Shown: in pieces, positions 3,651-64,000 of the stretch
How positions within the stretch are numbered: position 1 is the first letter of the stretch
Layout: each line of letters begins with the position of its first letter
Assembly (NCBI GenBank): GCA_977020255.1
Contig: CDROCS010006185.1
Location: 62,001-126,000, forward strand
Direction: 5' to 3'
From: Obrimoposthia wandeli
Taxonomy: Eukaryota
DNA length: 64,000 bases
Notes under the pieces: generated by a model
What the model saw: only the letters and a program-made list of their open reading frames with translations
Told to the model about the DNA's origin: nothing
The model's database searches: none
Made by a program: the position numbers and the translations under genes

Positions 3651-4152
3651 TGCACAGTAAAAATAGCACCATCATTGCGCAATTATGTATTCCAAATGTT
3701 CATCGTTTTTGTCTGATAATTCTTAATTTAGAACATTATTATCAACAACACCATCGAGCCAAATATTCAATGTACATTGAAACAATGATAAAAAGTCATT
3801 GAAATGATATGACAAGTCTCACATATGAACTGTAGAGTGATTATAACTATTGATGACTTAGAATAACAATAAAAATAGAATGCACGACAAAAACAACGAT
3901 AATTACAATTACAATTCTAAGGTTTTCAAAAACTTTAAAATTTACAGAACGAACAAATACGTTTTACAGCGTGATTTGAAAGATTGGAATACAAACTAAT
4001 TACCATTTGAAATGGAGGACGTCTAAACCAACGCACATTCAAATAAGACCTGATCACCTCAATAACCCATCCCATTTATTGCATAATCATAATGAGGGGA
4101 CTCAGTCAAATGAGAAGACAATTGTTGATGTAAGCGCTGTAGTCCATTGAAT
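3651..4152. repeat. ~500-bp direct repeat, copy 1
   Basis: Near-identical to 19161-19661 (about a dozen differences by eye). Confidence 0.9.
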
Positions 4153-4209
4153 AACGGTTGAATTATTTTTTAGAAAATAAAATTGTGATTTTTAAACAAG
4201 ATATTTAGT

Positions 4210-4700
4210 TGTTAGCCAACGTTTGTGGTATTTCGGAGATTTTGTTCCCCGGACGCAACTTATAAGAGACGCTTCTGGTCGATCTCGTTTAAGTTACATT
4301 ATATATATCAAAGTTGGCATTATGAAAAACTTACCTGTAAATTAGACACACACTTTGAAAACAAACTACAAATTACAAAGATACGTCTTTGGCTTTGCTT
4401 CAAAGCTGTTTATGAACAAGTTCTTTGAAATATTTTTATAGACTGTTTGAAGATTTTATCACATAATTTAAAGTACTTCACATGAGGATGAGCATAAAAT
4501 TACACGTTTGAGGGCTAATCTTGAATACTTTCCAGAAACTTGTAGTGCGTATACAGTAGAGAGCCAGGTGAAGGAATTCACTAAAACATTACTCGGGAGA
4601 AAAAAACGTTACAAAGACAAATGGATCATTCCTATGATGACAGATTACGGTTGGTACCTTATGAGATTTCAAATTTTATCCACATCGAATAAAATCTACG
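4210..4700 (+). mobile_element. DDE DNA-transposase remnant (superfamily not assigned)
   Basis: IKVGIMKN, MSIKLH..NLEYFPE, KRYKDKWIIPMMTDYGWYL resemble the widespread invertebrate motif set HIKLGLMKN / MSLKIHFLHSHLDFFPxN / RYQGxWxxxMxADYCW. Confidence 0.6.
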
Positions 4701-4756
4701 AGGAAATGATTTAATTCAAAATGACTCGTGTGTTATTTCTTTGATTGTATTACATT

Positions 4757-5722
4757 TGTAGATGTTTTCTATTGAAACTTAGAATCCTCGTATGGAGGCC
4801 CCAGCGTGAATTTCAGTAGCGATAGGGCTTACATATGGATGTGGCCTACCTGTTCTAATATCTGAAGGTTTTTTCTAGTCTCTGAAGGTTTTTGTGTTTA
4901 GTAAAAAAGTCTGTGTTCAGGAAAACGTGACTGTCCCTAAAACTATGGTTGTTAAGCTGGTTATAAAAACTGGTTAGGCCGAATTTGATTTCATATTCAA
5001 AAATAGTCTGGACAAAAATGGTCTGGCCACAACCAAGACAAGAAATAGGCAACAAGAAGCCGAAATAAATCAACGTCGAAGATGACTCTTTGAATGTGTC
5101 GGGGCTCAGGTTACCGTTTCGTTGGTTAATTCTCGGCCCAAATGATAGTTTTCAATTTTTTAATTTAGAAATGTTTCACACTTACTGTAATACTCAATTG
5201 GATTCTCAAAATGCTTAATCGTTTGGTTTCGAAATATTTATTACTATACTAAACGCTGATATTTAACAGAAAACGTATACAATTTTAATTCGCAGGGGCG
5301 ATATTTTCTACGCTTTAGGTTGACTAAAAGATTTTTATTTTCTCTAACGATTGATCGGAATAGTTATTTCAGTTGGTTATTATTTACTTTTACGTCTGAG
5401 TTATTCCAATGTGGGATTAATCATTCAAGATAATTCCCAAACTTCAGGACAAATTCACTATCTTTACTTCGGGATAAATTCACTATAATTACTTTAATGA
5501 TAAATTACGATCTTTAGTTTTATTCTCAGCGTTGGAGTGATATCTTCTCACGTTTTGACGAGGTAACTTCACTTTAGTATATATTCGTCTGGTAAGTTCG
5601 CGTCAATTTGTGATCTCGTTTCAGATTTCTTCGGGATTCGTTTTTATACGCTATCGATTAAAATAAACGTTTAAATAGAATAATTACTTTCGTGTTGTAC
5701 TGTAAACCGAATGTTTATCACA
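4757..5722 (+). mobile_element. LTR-like family X, copy 1
   Basis: TGT start; shared core GAAACTTAGAATCC..TGGAGGCCCC..GTGGCCTA..ATCTGAAGG; collinear with copy 3 up to ~5140; right end (ATCACA after AATAAA) is tentative. Confidence 0.6.
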
Positions 5723-7647: not shown

Positions 7648-7680
7648 TATACCGCCTACTATGGTCGTCCATAGTTTAAA

Positions 7681-7895
7681 GGGTAAAGTGGCTTAGTCTC
7701 CACCCTTCTTTTGAGATATATCACTATGAAAGGGTAAAGTGGCTTAGTCTCACCCTTCTTTTGAGATATACCACTATGAAAGGGTAAAGTGGCTTAGTCT
7801 CCACCCATCTTTTTGAGATATACCACTATGAAAGGGTAAAGTGGCTTAGTCTCCATCCATCTTTTAGTGATCTAGTCTCCACCCTTCTTTTTTTG
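7681..7895. repeat. ~51-bp subterminal repeats x4 (mirrored at ~18300-18525)
   Basis: GGGTAAAGTGGCTTAGTCTCCACCCTTC at 7681, 7732, 7782 and 7834; a variant of the TIR motif. Confidence 0.9.
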
Positions 7896-8429
7896 ATCTA
7901 GTCCATAATGAAAATTTATGATAAAGTTCACACTTAACAATTAAGAATGTATGACGTAATCATACACACACTATTCTATGTGAAAATCAAGGCTAAAGTT
8001 CACTCTTATCAGTTAAGGAATGTGGTTTTTAACACACACACTATTCTATGTGAAAGTTTAGATCAAATTATTTTCCTAGGTTTTCACATTTATAGAATTA
8101 TGATAAAATTTCTTTAAATAACTTCAATTATATATTAAAATAAAATAAAATAAGAAAGAAGTCAGAGAATAATACAAAATTAAACACATTTATTATGTAA
8201 TTTCATAATATCATCTTCAAACTTAAGTGAATAACATTTACAAAGTAAGAAAGTCCATTCTTTATACATTCTTTTTGTTTCAACGACTAAGTTACAACGG
8301 AATTAATAGAAAATTAGTAAAAATATTAATTTATTTGAATATTTGAATGAGAGTTTGAATAAATGAGAGGTAGAATGAATGTAAATGAATAAAATTATGC
8401 ATGCAAGTATGAATGTCATTTACAAGTAA

Positions 8430-11400
8430 GAGGGTTTAGCAAGTGAATGTAATTTAAAAATAAGAGTGTCGATAGTTTGATTGAATGCAAGTGTAATTTA
8501 GACTATAAGTAAATTAAAATAGAGTTTTTGTTGAATAAATTATAGTTAGATTGAATGCAAGTATGACGAGCAAGTGATTGATAGTTTGAATTTTCAATAC
8601 AAGTAAGTGGGTTTAGCAAGTGAATGTAATTTTAAAAAATAAGAGTGTCGATAGTTTGATTGAATGCAAGTGTAATTTAGACTATAAGTAAGTTAAAATA
8701 GAGTTTTTGTTGAATAAATTATAGTTAGATTGAATGCAAGTATGACGAGCAAGTGATTGATAGTTTGAATTTTCAATACAAGTAAGTGGGTTTAGCAAGT
8801 GAATGTAATTTTAAAAAATAAGAGTGTCGATAGTTTGATTGAATGCAAGTATGACGAGCAAGTGATTGATAGTTTGAATTTTCAATACAAGTAAGTGGGT
8901 TTAGCAAGTGAATGTAATTTTAAAAAATAAGTTTAGTTTGATTGAATGCAAGTGTAATTTAGACTAGGGCAAATTAAAATAGAGAATAAAATTAGTAGTT
9001 AGATTGAATGCAAGTATGACGAGCAAGTGATTGATAGTTTGGTAATTAGTAATGTAATTTTAAAAAAATAAGAGTGTCGATAGTTTGATTGAATGCAAGT
9101 AATTAGACTATAAGTAAATTAAAATAGAGTTTTGGAATAAATTAGTAGTTAGATTGAATGCAAGTATGACGAGCAAGTGTTTGATAGTTTCGAATGTAAG
9201 TTTTAGCAAGTGAATGTAATTTTAAAAAAATAAGAGTGTCGATAGCTTGATTGAATGCAAGTGTAATTTAGACTATAAGTAAATTAAAATAGAGTTTTTG
9301 TTGAAATAAATTATAGTTAGATTGAATGCGAGCAAGTATGACGAGCAAGTATAGTTTGAATTTTCAATACAAGCAAGTGGGGTTTAAAGTGAATGGGACT
9401 TTAATTTTAAAAAATAGAAAGTCGATAGTTTGATTGAATGCAAGTGTAGACTATAAGTAAATTAAAATAGAGTTTTGTTGAATAAATTATAGTTAGATTG
9501 AATGCAAGTATGACGCAAGTGATTGATAGTTTGAATTTTCAATACAAGTAAGTGGGTTTAGCAAGTAGTGTCGATAGTTTTACTGAATGTGTGCAAGTGA
9601 ATGTAATTTAAAAAAGAGTTTTTGTTGAATAAATTATAGTTAGATTGAATGCAAGTACGACGAGCAAGTGATTGATAGTTTGAATTTTCAAGTAAGTGGG
9701 TTTAGCATTGTAATAAAAATAAGAGTGTCGATAGTTTGATTGAATGCAAGTGTAATTTAGACTATAAGGGGGCAAATTAAAATAGAGTTTTGTTGAATAA
9801 ATTATAGTTAGATTGAATGCAAGTATGACGAGCAAGTGATTGATAGTTTGAATTTTCAATACAAGTAAGTGGGTTTAGCAAGTGAATGTAATTTTAAAAA
9901 ATAAGAGTGTCGATAGTTTGATTGAATGCAAGTGTAATTTAAGATATAAGTAAATTAAAATAGAGTTTTTGTTGAATAAATTATAGTTAGATTGAATGCA
10001 AGTATGACGAGCAAGTGTTTGATAGTTTGAATTTTCAATACAAGTAAGTGGGTTTAGCAAGTGAATGTAATTTTAAAAAATAAGAGTGTCGATAGTTTGA
10101 TTGAATGCAAGTGTAATTTAGACTATAAGTAAAATAAAATAGAGTTTTTTGTTGAATAAATTATAGTTGATTGAATGCAAGTATGACGAGCAAGTGATTG
10201 ATAGTTTGAATTTTCAATACAGTAAGTGGGTTTAGCAAGTGAATGTAATTTTAAAAATAAGAGTGTCGATAGTTTGATTGAATATGAGTGTAATTTAGAC
10301 TATATAGTAAATTAAAATAGAGTTTTTGTTGAATAAATTATAGTTAGATTGAATGCAAAGTATGACGAAACAGAGTGATTGATAGTTTGAATTTTCAATA
10401 CAAGTAAGTGGGTTTAGCAAGTGAATGTAATTTTAAAAAATAAGAGTGTCACGATAGTTTACAGTGATTGAATAAAGTGTAATTTAGACCTATAAGTAAA
10501 TTAAAATAGAGTTTTTGTTGAATAAATTATAGTTAGATTGAATGCAAGTGACGAAAACAAGTGATTAGATAGTTTGAATTTTCAATACAAATAATGAGGA
10601 TGGGTTTAGCAAGTGTATGTTTTTTAAAAATAAGAGTGTCGATAGTTTGATTGAATGCAAGTGTAAGTGTAATTTATACTATAAGTAAATTAAAATAGAG
10701 TCGTTGTTGAATAAATTATAGTTAAATTGAATGCAAGTATGACGAGGAAACAGTGATTGATAGTTGATAATTTTTCAATACAAGTAAGTGGGTTTAGCAA
10801 GTAGAATTTTTAAAAAACAAAGAGTGTCGTAGTTTGATTGAATGCAAGTGATACTAATTTGAACTATAAATAAAATTAAAAAAAGTTTTTGTGGAGCAAA
10901 TTTAGTTAGATTGAATGCAAGTATGACGAGCAAGTGTTTGATAGTTTGAATTTTAATACAAGTAAGTGGGTTTTAAAGTGAATGTAATTTTTAAAAAATA
11001 AGAGTGTCGATAGTTTGATTGAATACAGAATGTAATTTAGACTATAAATAAATTAAAATGAAGTTTTGATTGAATAAATTATATGTAGTTAGGTTGAATG
11101 CAAGTTATGATGACGAGCAAGTGATTGATAGTTTGAATTTTTCAATGTATTAGTTGGGTTTAACAAGTGAATGTAATTTTTAAAAAATAAGAGTGTCTCG
11201 ATAATTTTGATTGAATGCAAGTGCATTTTTAGATATAAGTAAATTAAAAATAGAGTTTTTGTTGAATAAATTATATAGTTGAATTGAATGCAAGTATGAC
11301 GAGCAAGTGATTGAATAGTTGAATTTTCAATACAAATTAAAGTGGGTTTAGCAAGTGAATATGAAGTTTTTTAAAAAATAAGAGTGTCGATAGTTTGATT
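8430..11400. repeat. Satellite A, ~179-bp unit, ~16-17 copies
   Basis: Period read from anchors at 8581/8760; copies become noisier toward 11.4 kb. Confidence 0.95.
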
Positions 11401-11689
11401 TTTTAAATTACTTGATATTTTTGCCATTGTCGTTTATTATAATATGAATATTCAATTTATTTCTTCAAAAATTCATTTTTTATATGTTAAATAATATTTC
11501 TTTATTATTGTGGTTTTATCAAGTGATTTTAACTTTAAACTATAAAAATATTTTAATTATAAAGTTAGTTGCTGTACCGCCCACTGTATATAACATAAAT
11601 TTCAAATATAAAGTACTATTAAGTTTATTATTTCGAATAGTAAATGATTTTTCGAGTTATTTAATTTTGTTTACTAGACGTTCGAAAAT

Positions 11690-14600
11690 TTACTTGTAAA
11701 CTACAATATTTATTTGTTGTTGTATATATTCAGTTGAAAATGTTGTAGTTATTACTTTAATATAATTTTCAACAAAAAACTTCAAGTAGTTTACTTATTA
11801 ATCATAAGTTTAATGTTTTGTATCATAAATTGACTTGTTAACATAATTTCTTTTGTTATAATTTCAATTTAATATGTTGTCACTTATTAATTTAATATAA
11901 TTTAAAAAAAAAAACTTCAAGTAGTTTACTTATTAAACATAAGTTTAATGTTTTGTACAATAAATTGACTTGTAAACATAATTTATTTTGATATATTTTC
12001 AATTTAATATGTTGTAAGTTATTACTTTTAATATAATTCTATAACAAAAACTTCAAGTAGTTTACTTATTAAACATAAGTTTAATGTTTTGTACAATAAA
12101 TTGACTTGTAAACATAATTTATTTTTGATATATTTTCAATTTAATATGTTGTAAGTTATTACTTTAATATAGTTTACAACAAAAGCTTATAATGTTACTT
12201 GTAAACTATAATATTTATTTGTTGTTGTATATATTTAGTTTAAATGTTGTAAGTTATTACTTTAATATAATTTACAACAAAAACTTCAAGTAGTTTACTT
12301 ATTAAACATAAGTTTAATGTTTTGTACAATAAATTGACTTGTAAACATAATTTATTTTTGATATATTTTCAATTTAATATGTAGTAAGTTATTACTTTAA
12401 TATAATTTTCAACAAAAACTTCAAGTAGTTTACTTATTAAACATAAGTTTAATGTTTTGTACAATAAATTGACTTGTAAACATAATTTATTTGATATATT
12501 TTCAATTTAATATGTTGTAAGTTATTACTTTAATATAATTTACAACAAAAAAAACTTCAAGTAGTTTACTTATTAAACATAAGTTTAATGTTTTGTACAA
12601 TAAATTGACTTGTAAACATAATTTATTTTGATATATTTTCAATTTAATATGTTGTAAGTTATTACTTTAATATAATTTACAACAAAAAACTTCAAGTTGT
12701 TTACTTATTAAACATAAGTTTAATGTTTTGTACAATAAATTGACTTGTAAACATAATTTATTTTGATATATTTTCAATTTAATATGTTGTAAGTTATTAC
12801 TTTAATATAATTTACAACAAAAACTTCAAGTAGTTTACTTATAAACCATAAGTTTAATGTTTTGTACAATAAATTTACTTGTATATATAATTTATTTTGA
12901 TATATTTTTTTCAATTTAATATGTTGTAAGTTATTACTTTAATATAATTTACAACAAAACTTCTAGTAATTTACTTGTAAACTACAATATTTATTTGTTG
13001 TTGTATATATTTAGTTTAAAATGTTGTTAGTTATTACTTTAATATAATTTTCAACAAAAACTTCGAGTAGTTTACTTATTAAACATAAGTTTAATGTTTT
13101 GTACAATAAATTGACTTGTTAACATAATATATTTATGCATATATTAACTTTAATATGTTGTAACTTATTACTTTAATATAATTTTCAACAAAAACTTCAA
13201 GTAGTTTACTTATTAATCATAAGTTTAATGTTTTGTACAATAATTTGACTTGTAAACATAATTTATTTTGATATATTTTCAATTTAATATGTTGTAAGTT
13301 ATTACTTTAATATAATTTACAACAAAAACTTCAAGTAATTTACTTGTAAACTACAATATTTATTTTGTTGTTGTATATATTCAGTTTAAAATGTTGTAAG
13401 TTAATACTTTAATATAATTTACAACCAAATCTTCAAGTAATTTACTCAATAATCATAATATTAATGATTTGATCAATAAATTGACTTGTAAACATAATAT
13501 AATTACGTGCATATTTTCAATTTAATATATTGTAGTTATTACTATAATATTACATTACATAAAAAAAGTAATTGATAGTTTACTATCGTTTACAATAAAT
13601 TTATGCATATATTCACTTTAATATGTTGTAAGTTATTACTTTATTATAATTTTCAACAAAAAAAAACTTCAAGTAATTGTTTACTTATTAAACATAAGTT
13701 TAATGTTTTTTTGTACAATAAATTGATTTGTATTTAACATACTTTATTTTGGTATATTTTCAATTTATATGTTGTAAGTTATTACTTTAATATAATTTAC
13801 AACCAAAACTTCAAGAAATTTACTTAATAATCATAATTTTAATGATTTGATCAATAAATTGTCTTGTAAACATAATATAATTTGCATATTTTCAATTTAA
13901 CACGTTGTAAGTTAATACTGTAATATTTCATTACATAAAAAAGTAATTCATAGCTGGTTTACTGTCGTTTACTATAAATTTACTTGTAAACATAATATAT
14001 TTATGCATTATTCACTTTAATACGTTTTAAGTTATTAGAATTTGTGTTCTTGTATTCAATGATTAACTTTTATTAAACTATTATATAACATTGACACTCT
14101 TATTTTTAAAAATTGACTTGTAAACATAATTTATTTTGATATATTTTCAATTTAATATGTTGTAAGTTATTACTTTAATATAATTTACAACAAAAACTTC
14201 TAGTAATTTACTTGTAAACTACAATATTTATTTGTTGTTGCATATATTTAGTTTAAAATGTTGTAAGTTATTACTTTAATATAATTTTCAACAAAAATTT
14301 CAAATGGTTACTTATTAAACATAAGTTTAATGTTTTGTACAATAAATTGACTTGTAAACATAATTTATTTTTGATATATTTTTCAAATTTAATATGTTGT
14401 AAGTTATTATACACAATATAATTTACAACAAAAACTTCAAGTAGTTTACTTATTAAACATAAGTTTAATGTTTTGTACAATAAATTGACTTGTAAACATA
14501 ATTTATTTTGATATATTTTCAATTTAATATGTTGTAAGTTATTACTAGTATATATTTAGTTTAAAATGTTGTAAGTTATTACTTTAATATAATTTTCAAC

Positions 14601-16760
14601 AAAAACTTCAAGTAGTTTACTTATTAAACATAAGTTTAATGTTTTGTACAATAAATTGACTTGTAAACACTTTTGCTGATTTTGATATATTTTCAATTTA
14701 ATATGTTGAATTATTGCTAATATAATTTACAACAAAAAACAAATGTTTACTTATTAAACTTAAGTTTAATGTTTTGTATCAAGACTTTAAACATATTTAT
14801 TTTGATATATTTTCAATTTAATATGTTGTAAGTTATTACTTTAATATAATTTACAACAAAAACTTCAAGTAGTTTACTTATTAAACATAAGTTTAATGTT
14901 TTGTACAATAAATTGACTTGTAAACATAATTTATTTTGATATATTTTCAATTTAATATGTTGTAAGTTATTACTTTAATATAATTTACAACAAAAAACTT
15001 CAAGTTGTTTACTTATTAAACATAAGTTTAATGTTTTGTACAATAAATTGACTTGTAAACATAATTTATTTTGATATTTTTTAATTTTATTATATTTGTT
15101 GTAGTTATTACTAAATATAATTTACAACAAAACTTTAAGTTGTTTCACTTATTAAACCTAAGTTTAATGTTTTGTACAATAAATTGACTTGTAAACATAT
15201 ATTTTTTTGATATATTTTCAATTTAATATATTGTAAGCTATTACTTTAATATAATTTACAATTAAAACTTCACTTCAAAGTTGTTTACTTATTAAACTTA
15301 AGTTTAATGTTTTTACACAATAAATTGACTTGTAAACATAATTTATTTTGATATATTTTCAATTTAATATGTTGTAAGTTATTATTACTTTAATATAATT
15401 TACAACAAAAAACTTCTAAGTAATTTACTTATTAAACTTAAGTTTAATGTTTTGTACAATAAATTGACTTGTAAACATAATTTATTTTGATATATTTTCA
15501 ATTTATATGTTGTAAGTTAGTACTTTAATATAATTTACAACAAAAAACTTCAAGTTGTTTACTTATTAAACATAAGTTTAATGTTTTGTACAATAAATTG
15601 ACTTGTAAACATAATTTATTTTGATATATTTTCAATTTAATATGTTGTAAGTTATTACTTTAATATAATTTACAACAAAAACTTCAAGTTGTTTACTTAT
15701 TAAACATAAGTTGTTTTGTACAATAAATTGACTTCTAATTTATTTTGATATATTTTCAATTTAATATATTTGTAAGTTATTACTATTGCTAAAAACTTCA
15801 TAAGTTGCTTTACTTATTAAACATAAGTTTAATGTTTTGTACAATAAATTGACTTGTAAACATAATTTATTTTGATATATTTTCAATTTAATATGTTGTA
15901 AGTTATTACTTTAATATAATTTACAACAAAACTTCAAGTAGTTTACTTATTAAACTTAAGTTTAATGTTTTGTACAATAAATTGACTTGTAAACATAATT
16001 TATTTTGATATATTTTCAATTTAATATGTTGTAAGTTATTACTTTAATATAATTTACAACAAAAAACTTCAATTATTTTACTTATTAAACTTAAGTTTAA
16101 TGTTTTGTACAATAAATTGACTTGTAAACATAATTTATTTTGATATATTTTCAATTTAATATGTTGTAAGTTATTACTTTAATATAATTTACAACAAAAA
16201 CTTCAAGTTGTTTACTTATTAAACATAAGTTTAATGTTTTGTACAATAAATTGACTTGTAAACATAATTTATTTTGATATATTTTCAATTTAATATGTTG
16301 TAAGTTATTACTTTAATATAATTTACAACAAAAACTTCAAGTAATTTACTTGTAAACTACAATATTTATTTTGTTGTTGTATATATTCAGTTTAAAATGT
16401 TGTAAGTTAATACTTTAATATAATTTACAACCAAATCTTCAAGTAATTTACTTAATAATCATAATATTAATGATTTGATCAATAAATTGACTTGTAAACA
16501 TAATATAATTTGCATATTTTCAATTTAATATATTGTAAGTTATTACTATAATATTACATTACATAAAAAAGTAATTGATAGTTTACTATCGTTTACAATA
16601 AATTTATGCATATATTCACTTTAATATGTTGTAAGTTATTACTTTATTATAATTTTCAACAAAAAAACTTCAAGTAGTTTACTTATTAAACATAAGTTTA
16701 ATGTTTTGTACAATAAATTGACTTGTAAACATAATATATTTATGCATTATTCACTTTAAT
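11690..16760. repeat. Satellite B, ~134-bp very AT-rich unit with recurring variant blocks
   Basis: AGTTATTACT anchors at 15901, 16034, 16169 and 16303. Confidence 0.95.
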
Positions 16761-16831
16761 ACGTTTTAAGTTATTAGAATTTGTGTTCTTGTATTCAATG
16801 ATTAACTTTTATTAAACTATTATATAACATT

Positions 16832-17775
16832 GACACTCTTATTTTTAAAAAATTACATTCACTTGCTAAACCCACTTACTTGTATTGAAAATTCAAACTA
16901 TCAATCACTTGCTCGTCATACTTGCATTCAATCTAACTATAATTTATTCAACAAAAACTCTATTTTAATTTACTTATAGTCTAAATTACACTTGCATTCA
17001 ATCAAACTATCGACACTCTTTTTTTTTAAAATTACATTCACTTGCTAAACCCACTTACTTGTATTGAAAATTCAAACTATCAATCTTGCTCGTCATACTT
17101 GCATTCAATCTAACTATAATTTATTCAACGAAAACTCTATTTTAATTTACTTATAGTCTAAATTACACTTGCATTCAATCAAACTATCGACACTCTTATT
17201 TTTTAAAATTACATTCACTTGCTAAACCCACGTACTTGTATTGAAAATTCAAACTATCAATCACTTGCTCGTCATACTTGCATTCAATCTAACTATAATT
17301 TATTCAACAAAAACTCTATTTTGATTTACTTATAGTCTAAATTACACTTGCATTCAATCAAACTATCGACACTCTTATTTTTTAAAATTACATTCACTTG
17401 CTAAACCCACTTACTTGTATTGAAAATTCAAACTATCAAACACTTGCTCGTCATACTTGCATTCAATCTAACTATAATTTATTCAACAAAAAACTCTATT
17501 TTAATTTACTTATAGTCTAAATTACACTTGCATTCAATCAAACTATCGACACTCTTATTTTTAAAATTACATTCACTTGCTAAACCCACTTACTTGTATT
17601 GAAAATTCAAACTATCAATCACTTGCTCGTCATACTTGCATTCAATCTAACTATAATTTATTCAACAAAAACTCTATTTTAATTTACTTATAGTCTAAAT
17701 TACACTTGCATTCAATCAAACTATCGACACTCTTATTTTTAAATTACATTCACTTGCTAAACCCTCTTACTTGTA
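16832..17775. repeat. Satellite A, inverted, ~5 copies
   Basis: ACTTGCTAAA anchors at 16861, 17040, 17217, 17396, 17575 and 17752. Confidence 0.95.
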
Positions 17776-18542
17776 AATGACATTCATACTTGCATGCATA
17801 ATTTTATTCATTTACATTCATTCTACCTCTCATTTATTCAAACTCTCATTCAAATATTCAAATAAATTAATATTTTACTAATTTTCTATTAATTCCGTTG
17901 TAACTTAGTCGTTGAAACGAAAAGAATGTATAAAGAATGGACTTTCTTACTTTGTAAATGTTATTCACTTAAGTTTGAAGATGATATTATGAAATTACAT
18001 AATAAATGTGTTTAATTTTGTATTATTCTCTGACTTCTTTCTTATTTTATTTTAATATATAATTGAAGTTATTTAAAGAAATTTTATCATAATTCTATAA
18101 ATGTGAAAAACCTAGGAAAATAATTTGATCTAAACTTTCACATAGAATAGTGTGTGTGTTAAAAACCACATTCCTTAACTGATAAGAGTGAACTTTAGCC
18201 TTGATTTTCACATAGAATAGTGTGTGTATGATTACGTCATACATTCTTAATTGTTAAGTGTGAACTTTATCATAAATTTTCATTATGGACTAGATCACAA
18301 AAAGAAGGGTGGAGACTAGATCACTAAAAGATGGATGGAGACTAAGCCACTTTACCCTTTCATAGTGATATAACTCAAAAAGAAGGGTGGAGACTAAGCC
18401 ACTTTACCCTTTCATAGTGGTATATCTCAAAAAGAAGGGTGGAGACTAAGCCACTTTACCCTTTCATAGTGATATATCTCAAAAAGAAGGGTGGAGACTA
18501 AGCCACTTTACCCTTTAAACTATGGACGACCATAGTAGTATA

Positions 18543-43840: not shown

Positions 43841-45787
43841 CTGTAATGATCACAATATATTTTCACCAATTTCATTTTAAAGTTATCAATTTTTAAGAGA
43901 TTGCAATAAAATTTGAGGCAAATTAAAAACGACTGTAGTATTCCAGAAAAACAATGTATACTCAATAAATCAAACTAAACACGAGCCACAAACATGAGCT
44001 ACCAGAAAATGCAATGATTTTAAAATTTCATCTCTAAGCGGAATTCACACAAAACATTTCTTGATTGCTTGCATCATGTGGTGAATAACTTCGTGCTTCA
44101 CCTTTTTAATCGATGACATAGACCGACGAGTTAGAGTACAATTGTTAGTTGTTTGTCAACCATTAGCATGGCATATGATTTTCAAAATACCCCTGTATTG
44201 CTCAATTGGAGTTACTTTCGGTACTTTGATATGATTCTCATTTTAAACAACATACAACCTTTTCTCATGCTATCATTCTCGATCTCATTCAATATTGTTT
44301 ATATTTTTCCTAATATTACTTACTATGCGTATTTTAACTACTCTTCACAACTGGAGTCATTATACACGGTGTTTGGAAGTGCACTATTTGGCTCACGACT
44401 GTTCTTAATGATAGTGAGTTGAGAGCTGATCTAAGTTTTCGTGTCAAATTTTTACCATTTGTCTGACTATATTCTAATCTATCCATTGCTACATAAAATG
44501 TGTTATTCAACTTTTCACACTCTATTTCTTTTTCCTTTAACATCAGTCTTAAATTTACATTTTCCATTGTCAGTCGTTTTTCTTTTTTGTTTTGTATCTT
44601 CTCCGATTATTTTGAGTATATTTTGAATGTTTCATTTTTTAAATTTTCTAATTAGTTTTAGTTTTATTCTTTAAATTGTTATTTACTATTTCCTACATAC
44701 GCATGTGCATCTCCCATATACTATTTACATTATATGTACTGTATTTATAAGATTTTTTATTAAAAAAAGTGTTAGTTTGTGTTCTTTGTGAGATAGATTT
44801 ATAAGGATTTCTCACTTCTTTTTTATTGTTTTCAATCACTGTGTTTCTTGATACATTGGATGAGCTTGTAGTGCTTGTAATACTAGGTCATAAATGAGCA
44901 GGGGTCCATAAAATTTAGTTCAATGATTTGATTTTGAAATTTTCTTATGTTTTGAAATTGTTATTTCCAACAATGAGTATGACGAGTAATTTATATTAAA
45001 ATTATTACTATTGTTACTATGAGTTCTATTCCACCGTCATCATGGGAATGTTTTTGTTTGCTATAATACATCTTATTTTTTGATTGAAAAATTTGTACTT
45101 TAGTCGTTTTAAGTTTGAATGACTTTTCATCATTTCTGTGATATTAAATAGAACTGTATGCTTATCTATTTTTTGTTGTTTATGTTTTGTTGTAGTTTCT
45201 TTCCTGTATCCATCAACTTCGAATAATAACCAGTTTCCGCAAAAAACTTGGTTTGGTATAGTTTAGATATTTCATTTCCTATAATTTTTAATGTTAAGTT
45301 TTTACAAGTCTCAAATTTGTGTCCCCAGTTTCTGTACATTATTGTTTTGTTAGTGACCACACATTTTCTATTTATATAATTACTTTTTCTAAATCTATTG
45401 AATTTGTATAGTCAAATTTGTCTTAGTTTATGATTTAACTAATTGTTTCTCTGTATCTTTCCAAAAATTAGAAATGCGTCCTCTATATCTAATTTCTTTA
45501 AAAGCTTTGTCTAAGTCGTCTTAGCTGAATTTTCTATTTTATTACTATGTTTTATTTTGTTGTACGTTTTGCTTTTGTTTATAATATTGTTTGGGATTGA
45601 CGCTTTGAATTATGTCATGTTATTAAAAACGCTAAAAAATACGGTAAAATAATTAATTAAAATATTATGTGTGATCGATTTTTTATGAATTTATGTTATG
45701 ATTATTGTACATTAGAATAAAGTTTTGATACCAAAGTTAGTATGTCTTATGTTATGCATTACACAATGGAATTAAACATGGTAGCAG

Positions 45788-60665: not shown

Positions 60666-61588
60666 ACAAACCCATTGAAATAAACAAACTTTTTCAAATG
60701 AATAATACTTTAAACACTGCTTATGAAGTGGAACGTTTTGTTGACCATTTTTTTTCTGAAAAATTAAGGGAAAACAAATTTTATTTGAATTAAAAAATAT
60801 TGATACTACGAAAGATAATATTGAGACAAAATTGGCTCGTCGTCTACAAGTTATTTGAATTTCTCATGCTCTACTATCGTCACCTCAGCAGTTGCGAGTA
60901 TGTTGGTGGTTACATTCCTCTTCTTTGGCCTGTGCACCACCGTACACTGCTTACCTCTTGGTGCAATAAGAGCAGCTTCACCCATAAATTCATCCAGTAG
61001 CTGTATCTGATTTAGTTCCTGCAATAATAAAACATCATCAATAACTTTTTATATAGAAACATATTCGGCAATTTCTCTTGCTTCGCCAACACAAATTTCT
61101 TGCTTTTGTTGGGGTTTCTATACGAAACTTGGTATAGAGCCTCTTGACTGTGCGGAGGGCCCCAACGTGAGTTCGATTAGAAGCAGGTCTTAAAGTTGGT
61201 CGTGGCCTACTTAGTGTTATGGTTGCCTAATCTCTTGTACTATCTGAAGGTATTTGATTTGATGTCTCTTAGTCTGAAGGGTGTAAAAACAACTTGTTCT
61301 AATGTAGGAAATTGTTTATTCGAAATTCACGTAACTAACACAACAATACGTTTACGTACGTATTTCTAAAAAGTATGATAAAATTCCTAAAGGACTTCTG
61401 TGAGTCTACAAGAAGTGGGGATGAACCACGTATCGATTTTACGTTCAGGTGATTTAGTTTCTTAGGTTTGTTCTTCTTACTAGGTTGGTTAATCTATAAC
61501 GCAACTCTCTTAAATTTCTTCGCTCCTACTTCTTATCTCTAGCTAAAGTTTCTTGGTTCCTTACTCTATCTGTGTGTGTTTGACCCGA

Positions 61589-62017
61589 ATTGTCTACTGT
61601 AAACAATGGATCTCCTAAAAACCTAATTGTCAAGATGACAATGAAAACTTACTCCTAATTGTCAACTACGGACAATGAACGAACCGAATTGTCAGCTAGG
61701 GACAATGAGTCTTACCGAATTGTCTACTAGGGACAATGAATATTTATCCGAATTGCCAACTAGGGGCAATGAATGAACCTAATTGTCAGCTAGGGACAAT
61801 GAATCTTACGGGTAAAACGTCTGGGTAGGATTCCTAATTGTCGCTGGGGACAATGAATAAATGTCCGATCTTAATTACCAACTAGGGGCAATGATTGTGT
61901 TAAGGAGTCGAGTTGTCCTAATTGCCAGCTAGGGGCAATGAATTTGTGTATTAATTTAAAATGTAGAATTACCAACAAGGGGTAATGACAGTATCCTAAT
62001 TGCCAACTAGGGGCAAT
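61589..62017. repeat. Array of 12 short palindromes (6-bp stem, 5-7-nt loop) with variable spacers
   Basis: ATTGTC-N7-GACAAT, ATTGCC-N7-GGCAAT and ATTACC-N7-GGTAAT, read directly. Confidence 0.92.
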
Positions 62018-62133
62018 GAATCGTCTAGTTTGTTTTCTTACCAGTTACTCGAGTTTCCGGCACAGGATCCGTAGGGTCTTTCGGAATCGTCACTTGCACG
62101 TTAGCTTGAATCCGGATTGACTGAACTCTGTGG

Positions 62134-62835
62134 CTTTAATACGAACTGATCTCTTTGACTTTAATACGAATTGATTTCTTTGACTTTAATACGAATTGAT
62201 TTCTTTGACTTTAATACGAATTGATTTCTTTGACTTTAATACGAATTGATTTCTTTGACTTTAATACGAATTGATCTCTTTGACTTTAATACGAATTGAT
62301 CTCTTTGACTTTAATACGAATTGATCTCTTTGACTTTAATACGAATTGATTTCTTTGACTTTAATACGAATTGATCTCTTTGACTTTAATACGAATTGAT
62401 CTCTTTGACTTTAATACGAATTGATCTCTTTGACTTTAATACGAATTGGTTTAACTTCTTGTCAATTCTAAATTATTTTAATTTAGTTTAATTTTCAGCT
62501 TTTACTTACTGGCTTTTATTTACTTTAATACGAATTGATTTCTTTGACTTTAATACGAATTGATCTCTTTGACTTTAATACGAATTGATCTCTTTGACTT
62601 TAATACGAATTGATCTCTTTGACTTTAATACGAATTGATTTCTTTGACTTTAATACGAATTGATCTCTTTGACTTTAATACGAATTGATTTCTTTGACTT
62701 TAATACGAATTGATCTCTTTGACTTTAATACGAATTGATCTCTTTGACTTTAATACGAATTGGTTTAACTTCTTGTCAATTCTAAATTATTTTAATTTAG
62801 TTTAATTTTCAACTTTTACTTACTGGCTTTTATTT
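62134..62835. repeat. 25-bp minisatellite in two blocks, each followed by the same ~75-bp spacer
   Basis: CTTTAATACGAATTGAT(C/T)TCTTTGA; ~12 copies at 62134-62447 and ~9-10 copies at 62523-62760. Confidence 0.95.
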
Positions 62836-63615
62836 TCTCGGAAATTTAGCTTTTCTGCCGGGCCACTTTGTTGCAACTTGGTTTATGAGTCAACTACTTA
62901 TATACTCGCTATGGGTTGTCTGTCAGCAAGATTGGACAGCTGATCTTATAGTTACTGAGTCGGGGATCTGTCACTCAATGGACAGCTGATTTTACTCTGG
63001 AAGTTTCTTCTTGAGATCTAAAAAATCAATAAATTCTATTGCACTTACAATGTGCTTACCTCGACGTCTCTTGATTGACGTGACTAATTAATCTCCTAAT
63101 TTAATGGCTTCTCCTTAATTAATCTTAACAGTTGTTCGTTTTGGGTTAATTAATTTTAACTTTTATACATTTTCGCATAATACACGACCTTCGTGGTCCT
63201 CCTAATTTTACCCTAAATTCCACTAATTTTAATTCTAAAACTTAAATTAATATTTTAATTTAATTTTCGACCTTGCTTTCAAGGATTTTTATTTTAGTAT
63301 TTAATCGACTAAAATATTTAATTTTCTTAATTCTCAACCTTAACATACCTCGGGGGTTCCAAAAAAGTTACGTCCCCGGAACGTATCGATTTTACTTAAA
63401 TAAGCCTTTGGCTGTTGATTTTAGGTTCATCCCTACAAAATCAATCATTCAACTTCAACAAACATGCCCAAAAAAAATTTTCCAAAACTTGGTTTTTTAG
63501 TGGGAAATTATAATGCATAAGTTGGAACATGTCTCAATTTATACATTATTACTATATGACAACTAAAATTTACATACAAGATTACAGATTAGGAAGGAAA
63601 GAAGGGAGGAAAGTA

Positions 63616-64000
63616 TCAGTTTTCGTATGTCAGGTCAATTGTTATTGTCGGCTGGTTCCGACTGGTCAGGTAGCGTAGAACCTGCTCCAGGGGAAGGTCG
63701 GGAAAGGACGGACTGTCCCCGTTGTACAAGTGGAGTTGTTGGCTCCGGGTTAAATGTGGGCTGTCGATGAACAGGTCGAATTGCTGCCCGTTCATGGCAT
63801 GGCTTTCAATCCAGTGCCGTCTGGCCTGGAACCACGAGTGGCAGTCTCGACTAGACCGCCATCTCTCGCGGACGCCCAGTTGTGTGTCGCGCCGGCGTGC
63901 GAGACACACGTAGCATTGGCAATGTATGCCACCAATGCAGCTGGCAGGCGATCGGGTGCCCTTGTGTCTTCCGCGGCTCTGGAGTGTCCATTTGGCGAAG
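63616..64000 (-). CDS. Unidentified GC-rich ORF C-terminus, open to the right edge
   Basis: No stop in frame from 63999 to TGA at 63616 (~127 codons): ...SCIGGIHCQCYVCLARRR...QPTITIDLTYEN*; no family recognised. Confidence 0.4.
   Translation of the reverse strand, partial: FAKWTLQSRGRHKGTRSPASCIGGIHCQCYVCLARRRDTQLGVRERWRSSRDCHSWFQARRHWIESHAMNGQQFDLFIDSPHLTRSQQLHLYNGDSPSFPDLPLEQVLRYLTSRNQPTITIDLTYEN

Follow-up and report, generated by a model that had tools for sequence, protein, structure and literature searches.

The 12 hairpins at positions 61589–62017 of the window (the whole 64,000-nucleotide stretch of Obrimoposthia wandeli DNA analyzed here, positions 62,001 to 126,000 of contig CDROCS010006185.1) are, as we conclude with high confidence from variation among their copies, under selection for base pairing in sense-strand RNA. 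The initial annotation of this DNA had proposed, as one possibility, that selection acts on stem-loops in the RNA of a retroelement, and this is supported by the G·U-only intermediates found at all eight variable unit/pair sites. As to what the hairpins do, we would give roughly even chances to a reading, drawn from sequence, in which they form a docking array for a host protein that biases splicing versus unspliced RNA, polyadenylation or export.

The array is located in the 3′ LTR of a Burro-like retroelement

The array lies inside a 2,239-bp repeat (61107–63345), a second copy of which is found 21,964 bp away and is 99.8% identical. The two copies are the long terminal repeats (LTRs) of a retroelement, and the window contains the 3′ LTR, bounded by TG...CA; the 5′ LTR is at positions 145069–147310 of contig CDROCS010006185.1. 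A 4-bp target-site duplication, AAAG (61103–61106), has its matching copy in front of the 5′ LTR. The array was initially written on the plus strand; the relevant strand is the minus strand, which is the sense strand of the element and carries all the LTR features described below.

By its sequence, the element is a young 24-kb Burro-like Gypsy retroelement. The features of Gypsy/Ty3 elements that were found are the twin TG...CA LTRs, the target-site duplication, a site similar to a primer binding site (PBS) and the order PR-RT-RH-IN; a polypurine tract is absent, as the 15 nt before the 3′ LTR are not purine-rich. The PBS-like 18-mer, which we take to match tRNA-Met, is located 8 nt after the 5′ LTR and has 5,403 matches in the genome. 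The same 8-nt gap, which is unusually long, was seen in the copies viewed (e.g. copy L033, 5043–5068), and the leader of L033 contains a 47-bp tandem array after the 18-mer. Pfam matches in the 19.7-kb interior, on the minus strand, comprise a zinc knuckle, a viral fusion glycoprotein, BIR, two protease domains, RING, RT, RNase H, integrase, two phosphatase domains and a terminal RING ORF. The Burro/GYPSM1 elements of planarians, as described in the parts of PMC6431247 considered here, are giant Gypsy elements, present in thousands of copies, that encode BIR and RING domains and have env placed between gag and protease. The present element is similar in its giant size, the zinc knuckle of Gag, the fusion-glycoprotein env between gag and protease, the BIR and RING domains and the thousands of copies, and it differs in the length of its interior and in having two dual-specificity phosphatase domains after the integrase (PMC6431247). 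The placement of env together with the BIR and RING domains makes a planarian the probable host. For Burro/GYPSM1, one continuous polyprotein of about 5,000 aa is described; the long frame of this copy is in five overlapping pieces. The MATH, BCL2-like and ankyrin motifs of Burro/GYPSM1 had no Pfam match at E<0.01 in the seven ORFs of the element. No LTR RNA structure is described in the same parts of PMC6431247, and PMC8532177, in the part considered, treats Burro expression only. No description of this array was found in the literature searched; Grohme et al. 2018 may describe Burro LTR repeats.

Read in the sense direction, the LTR contains a TATA-like box at 63160–63167, another at 62897–62904 (similar boxes occur 5′ of the array in other copies), a 25-bp tandem repeat (62122–62762) in the variable middle of this LTR subfamily, a splice-donor-like motif, G/GTRAG (62036–62044), 24 nt 5′ of the first hairpin, the array itself and a conserved terminal part (61107–61441). 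The last is common to all types of LTR described below, and its anchor motif was found in 89 of 90 LTRs. It contains an AATAAA at 61315–61320, the likely polyadenylation signal; A(A/T)TAAA is present in the matching window of 88 of the 90 LTRs, mostly 205–214 nt from the LTR end. Two small hairpins follow directly after the anchor, the second with a stem that is kept and a loop that varies across LTR types, and a copy of the anchor motif, again followed by a small hairpin, is located about 45 nt upstream of the 3′ LTR (63346–63395). Further donor-like motifs are found in the LTR at 63054–63062, with counterparts similarly placed in three other copies, and at 62818–62825.

All 12 hairpin units start where the initial annotation had placed them (61589, 61626, 61658, 61688, 61719, 61752, 61782, 61837, 61874, 61921, 61968 and 61999), and its ten perfect 6-bp stems in three variants were recovered as well (in plus-strand letters, ATTGTC/GACAAT in six units, ATTGCC/GGCAAT in three and ATTACC/GGTAAT in one). 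The units at 61589 and 61874 have a single mismatch each, A·C on the plus strand and G·U on the minus strand. The description of the loops held for their length, which is 7 nt in 10 of 12 units (5 nt at 61626 and 6 nt at 61837), and less well for the sequence A(A/G)CTAGG, which is only an approximate consensus, with AACTAGG or AGCTAGG exact in six loops. On the sense strand the loop reads C-N-N-N-G-Y-W. The spacers are variable. Within the 64-kb window the unit motif is confined to the array, and a degenerate 24-nt pattern of the unit matched at 45,216 places in the 1.35-Gb genome versus none for the reversed-pattern control. Roughly 4,000–5,000 LTRs of the genome bear the array.

Folded alone, all 12 sense units form the stem (single hairpins at −1.9 to −5.7 kcal/mol), and with the span limited to 25 nt the pair probability exceeds 0.85 in 8 of 12. 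Local hairpins were not favored when the whole array was folded (z of −1.8 for the sense and −1.1 for the antisense strand); the mean pair probability was then below 0.5 in 10 of 12 units, because the units pair with each other. According to these models, local hairpins would have to be held by co-transcriptional folding or by a bound protein, and the diversity of stems among the units might limit mispairing between them.

Stem substitutions and RNA pairing

What reads as G·U on one strand reads as an A·C mismatch when the opposite strand is taken. In DNA the two are a single kind of lesion, and both would be expected from a DNA dyad or from neutral decay. Genome-wide, half-changed stems read on the sense strand comprise 3,127 G·U versus 48 A·C at pair 4, 1,452 versus 35 at pair 5 and 168 versus 29 at pair 6 (with the G·U change on the left arm), all of these counts being inflated by descent. 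By hand count, among the first 100 matches listed for pairs 4, 5 and 6, respectively, 38, 44 and 18 have the G·U variant in both LTRs of the same element; the A·C variant is shared in this way by 2 of 112, which are all the A·C matches. This indicates that A·C states are almost all single post-insertion changes or errors and that G·U is carried through replication. The case is weakest at pair 6, where 33 of the first 100 U·G matches listed come from the terminal unit.

Orthologous units were compared in a sample made up of the first 90 PBS matches, unselected for stem state, 37 of which have the array. Ten of these differ in unit number or spacing and were excluded, and the other 27, together with the window, gave an alignment of 28 LTRs with 12 orthologous units. 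In sense numbering, pair 5 occurs in U-A, U·G and C-G states in units 3, 4, 6 and 7, and pair 4 in G-C, G·U and A-U states in units 2, 3, 4 and 7, so that stepwise routes from U-A through U·G to C-G and from G-C through G·U to A-U are seen at 8 of 8 variable unit/pair sites. The recurrence of changes at five orthologous units answers the worry, voiced in the initial annotation, that there were perhaps only two independent covariation events. Independent mutation of the stem halves, named there as the sign against selection, does not fit pairs 4 and 5 of units 1–11, which contain 42 G·U cells and no A·C cell across the 28 LTRs. When the arms were made to evolve independently on the tree, this null model produced 48 A·C cells on average, with 0 of 20,000 runs reaching zero. 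This null ignores recombination, and the cautious figure is the 8 of 8 sites (p about 0.004–0.02). The terminal unit deviates, with C·A at pair 5 in 3 of 28 LTRs and C·U at pair 1 in 13 of 28. Outside the stems the mutation background is at most 1.5-fold asymmetric (about 1.5 for C>T/G>A and about 1.0 for A>G/T>C). The restriction of intermediates to G·U on the sense strand favors selection on a hairpin in RNA; a dyad in DNA or self-correction of a palindrome fits it less well.

Stem variants concentrate in the donor-proximal units (sense units 1–7), and the commonest stem is retained in units 5 and 8–11. Parsimony steps per column amount to 1.48 in spacers, 0.23 in loops and 0.00–0.08 in stem pairs 2–3; the slow change of the loops and of these pairs indicates that sequence is kept as well as pairing. 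Among 388 motif-matched units, a set biased toward conserved units and lacking units 5 and 11, the first loop position is C in 374 and the fifth is G in 387, with no covariation between C1 and G5. The alignment supports conservation of C1 and G5 for most units, not for unit 11. Taken as a whole, the array documents compensatory evolution of RNA in nature with unusual completeness: both two-step G·U routes are caught at several units and, with about 45,000 copies, post-insertion mutations serve as a built-in control.

Position in the transcript and exchange of the array

The array is probably located in R, between the transcription start and the poly(A) site, because TATA-like boxes lie upstream of it and a conserved AATAAA-type hexamer downstream; no such hexamer is conserved between TATA and the array. 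The donor-like motif is found 20–28 nt 5′ of the first hairpin in 36 of 37 arrays, and it is kept even though the sequence upstream of the array is the most variable part. Three acceptor-like CAG motifs lie 0–2 nt before ATGs in the 3′ region, one of them directly before the ATG (contig position 126149) of the terminal RING ORF, the last internal ORF, whose 3′ part occupies 63616–64000 of the window. These would be plausible partners of the donor-like motif, in which case the 5′ array would be the first feature of a 20-kb intron. A search for spliced retrocopies that skip the array did not find them (8 matches versus 22 for the control, with two candidate acceptors in the terminal element), and the sole exact-looking donor-acceptor junction among the retrocopy matches lies outside any LTR.

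The region between the donor-like motif and the ∼340-nt terminal element is a slot that is filled by unrelated repeats, with 47 types in 89 LTRs. The array is the type in 36 of these, and the next commonest types occur in 3. The array is absent from 53 of the 90 sampled elements of the same family and is thus not needed. Gag and the 3′ 4 kb were each compared in 20 of the 90 elements (two were exchanged owing to contig ends, and one had no match). The gag region is 92–99% identical across the 20 elements, and two array-less elements match the element of the window in gag at 98.4% and 98.8% identity and are interleaved on the gag tree. In the 3′ 4 kb, one array-less element is 97.2% identical versus 90–98% for array-bearing ones. 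On this evidence the array is optional, and its presence is linked neither to gag nor to the 3′ 4 kb. This speaks for a reader from the host and against an obligatory packaging signal or a cognate protein of the element. For both regions, co-evolution of the array with a protein of the element was rejected, as the array type follows neither in the 20 of 90 elements compared for each. An obligatory retroviral packaging signal is likewise unlikely, the array being present in 37 of 90 elements only and unlinked to gag. The packaging, dimerization or translation signal of the initial annotation is therefore unsupported as an obligatory one: among the 53 elements that lack the array some are 98% identical in gag, and the loop palindromes are unconserved.

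Between one and seven similar hairpins are present in 4 of 52 other LTRs, and about 20 of the 52 LTRs with other slot types contain a repeated dyad, a number counted without a chance control. Slot types that are repeated dyads include those of LTR copies L088, L094, L115, L121 and L137. A second family of hairpins, GAGY-loop-RCUC, is found 250 nt upstream of the terminal anchor (LTR copies L065–L154) in one to five copies, commonly spaced by about 34 nt. The top pair of these hairpins is C-G in 46 cases, U-A in 32 and another in 21. They are present in 39 of 52 array-less LTRs versus 0 of 37 array LTRs, and 13 LTRs have neither, a distribution that would suit a replacement of these hairpins by the array but may reflect one loss.

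Possible functions of the array

In the docking reading, the 12 hairpins would constitute a multivalent binding site in the RNA of the element for a host RNA-binding protein. Each hairpin would be recognized by the shape of its stem together with sequence, including the loop C-N-N-N-G-Y-W, because pairs 1–3 and 6 and loop positions C1 and G5 hardly vary. A row of hairpins beside the donor may tilt the RNA toward staying unspliced; alternatively, the outcome may be that the 5′ poly(A) signal is read through or that the unspliced RNA is exported. By analogy, the array likely works like retroviral RNA elements of the R region and those located behind a donor. In foamy virus, according to the parts of PMC3694450 considered, a splice donor in the LTR upstream of the poly(A) signal is controlled by RNA structure. 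The two systems share a donor, or donor-like motif, in the LTR before the poly(A) signal, which means that a single sequence has to behave differently at the two ends, but in foamy virus one structure hides or shows the donor, whereas here a swappable 12-fold array is placed 24 nt behind the donor-like motif and about 270 nt before the signal (PMC3694450). Retroviral cis-acting RNA elements treated in the relevant part of PMC12789967 include TAR, CTE, the MMTV element behind the major donor and the MPMV export element. TAR, CTE and the MMTV element are likewise structured or protein-bound RNA signals in R or just behind a donor, and they control the fate of genomic RNA; unlike these single, family-defining elements, the array is multimeric and present in about 40% of one family (PMC12789967).

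Of the other readings, an accessory packaging or dimerization signal read by the Gag/nucleocapsid of the element, which would mark unspliced RNA behind the major donor and give this LTR type an edge in entering particles, is unlikely. It agrees with the location of the array just behind the donor-like motif, the repeated hairpins with the same loop, the zinc knuckle in Gag and the predominance of the array type among the 89 LTRs. However, elements with unrelated slots are nearly identical to the array-bearing one in gag and interleaved with it, an array in R would also occupy the 3′ end of spliced RNAs, and the CUAG loop palindrome is missing from many units. It is quite unlikely, too, that local structure alone is selected, with hairpins that compact or shield the AU-rich RNA of the R region against cryptic processing, decay or small-RNA access and have no specific reader. 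Dozens of unrelated repeats do occupy the same slot, and some of them contain other repeated dyads, but structure would not require the conservation of C1/G5, loop length and flanks, and the weak A-U pairs 1–3 show almost no G·U or compensatory change.

A neutral origin, in which a chance palindrome was amplified in tandem and template switching in reverse transcription copies arm onto arm, is already disfavored, and we consider it improbable. Repeats expand freely in the LTR slot, and pairs 4 and 5 are half-changed on the right arm, which is possible from intramolecular switching in minus-strand synthesis. Such correction would nevertheless remove G·U and A·C equally, and G·U persists in thousands of copies, with A·C almost only a single post-insertion change; this also disfavors palindrome self-correction, which the initial annotation had raised as a source of the covariation. 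Moreover, loops, which lie beyond fold-back correction, are six times more conserved than spacers. Dyad sites in DNA, offered in the same annotation for a dimeric DNA-binding protein, are disfavored because the sense strand keeps only G·U, and it is very improbable that such sites are read by a dimeric insulator protein or transcription factor acting downstream of the promoter. The 12 copies with variable spacers, the fixed 7-nt spacing with its partly free center and the likeness of the left arm and flank to what we take to be a Sox site would suit such a protein. Symmetric half-sites predict both single-arm variants, however, and only one is kept; the stem variants also destroy the Sox-like core.

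Several known RNA motifs and processes were considered and rejected. The Smaug/ZCCHC14 stem-loop has a C-N-G-G loop (CNGG(N)), and G is at loop position 3 in 1 of 388 units and at position 4 in 0 of 388. A U1A box, which would presumably lie inside the stem, is broken by the stem variants. An alternative hairpin or pseudoknot of the loop with the 3′ flank has no covariation, and kissing through loop palindromes is at odds with the poor conservation of these palindromes. ADAR-type editing cannot yield C>U steps, and U-A pairs 2–3 are untouched; CpG decay does not apply, as the variable C sits in CpA. Rfam contained no match for the array (two chance matches at E about 6). The iron responsive element needs a six-nucleotide loop with A15-G16-U17 and a bulged C below a five-pair upper helix; the array has 7-nt loops with a variable center and a conserved C before a six-pair stem, with no conserved lower helix. 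The pseudotriloop hairpin needs a hexaloop, a cross-loop pair, one 3′ bulge and a G-C closing pair, and the units have a heptaloop and a C-G closing pair. In the parts of PMC8466369 and PMC3884659 considered, both motifs resemble the array in the short stem, the C immediately 5′ of it and loop C1 and G5 able to pair across the loop, and differ from its heptaloop, 6-bp stem, C-G closing pair and lack of an AGU triplet.

A broader and doubtful extension of the docking reading, again suggested by sequence comparison, is that the R region of this family acts as a plug-in cassette: between a fixed splice donor and a fixed terminal element, RNA modules of dozens of unrelated kinds would replace one another while the coding backbone stays nearly the same. 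The most successful module, the 12-fold array, would capture a planarian RNA-binding protein through a new stem-plus-CNNNGYW code, which would explain its 40% share of copies. The exchange of an LTR RNA module among at least 47 types within one retroelement family, with Gag unchanged, bears on how LTRs solve the problem of polyadenylation and splicing at their 5′ and 3′ copies and on LTR diversification, and the array points to an RNA-binding specificity in planarians that is testable with a 26-nt RNA.

Elsewhere in the window, positions 7678–18516 contain a mirror-arranged block in which 52-bp and 179-bp tandem repeats are inverted on either side of a central 135-bp array, similar to a foldback element.
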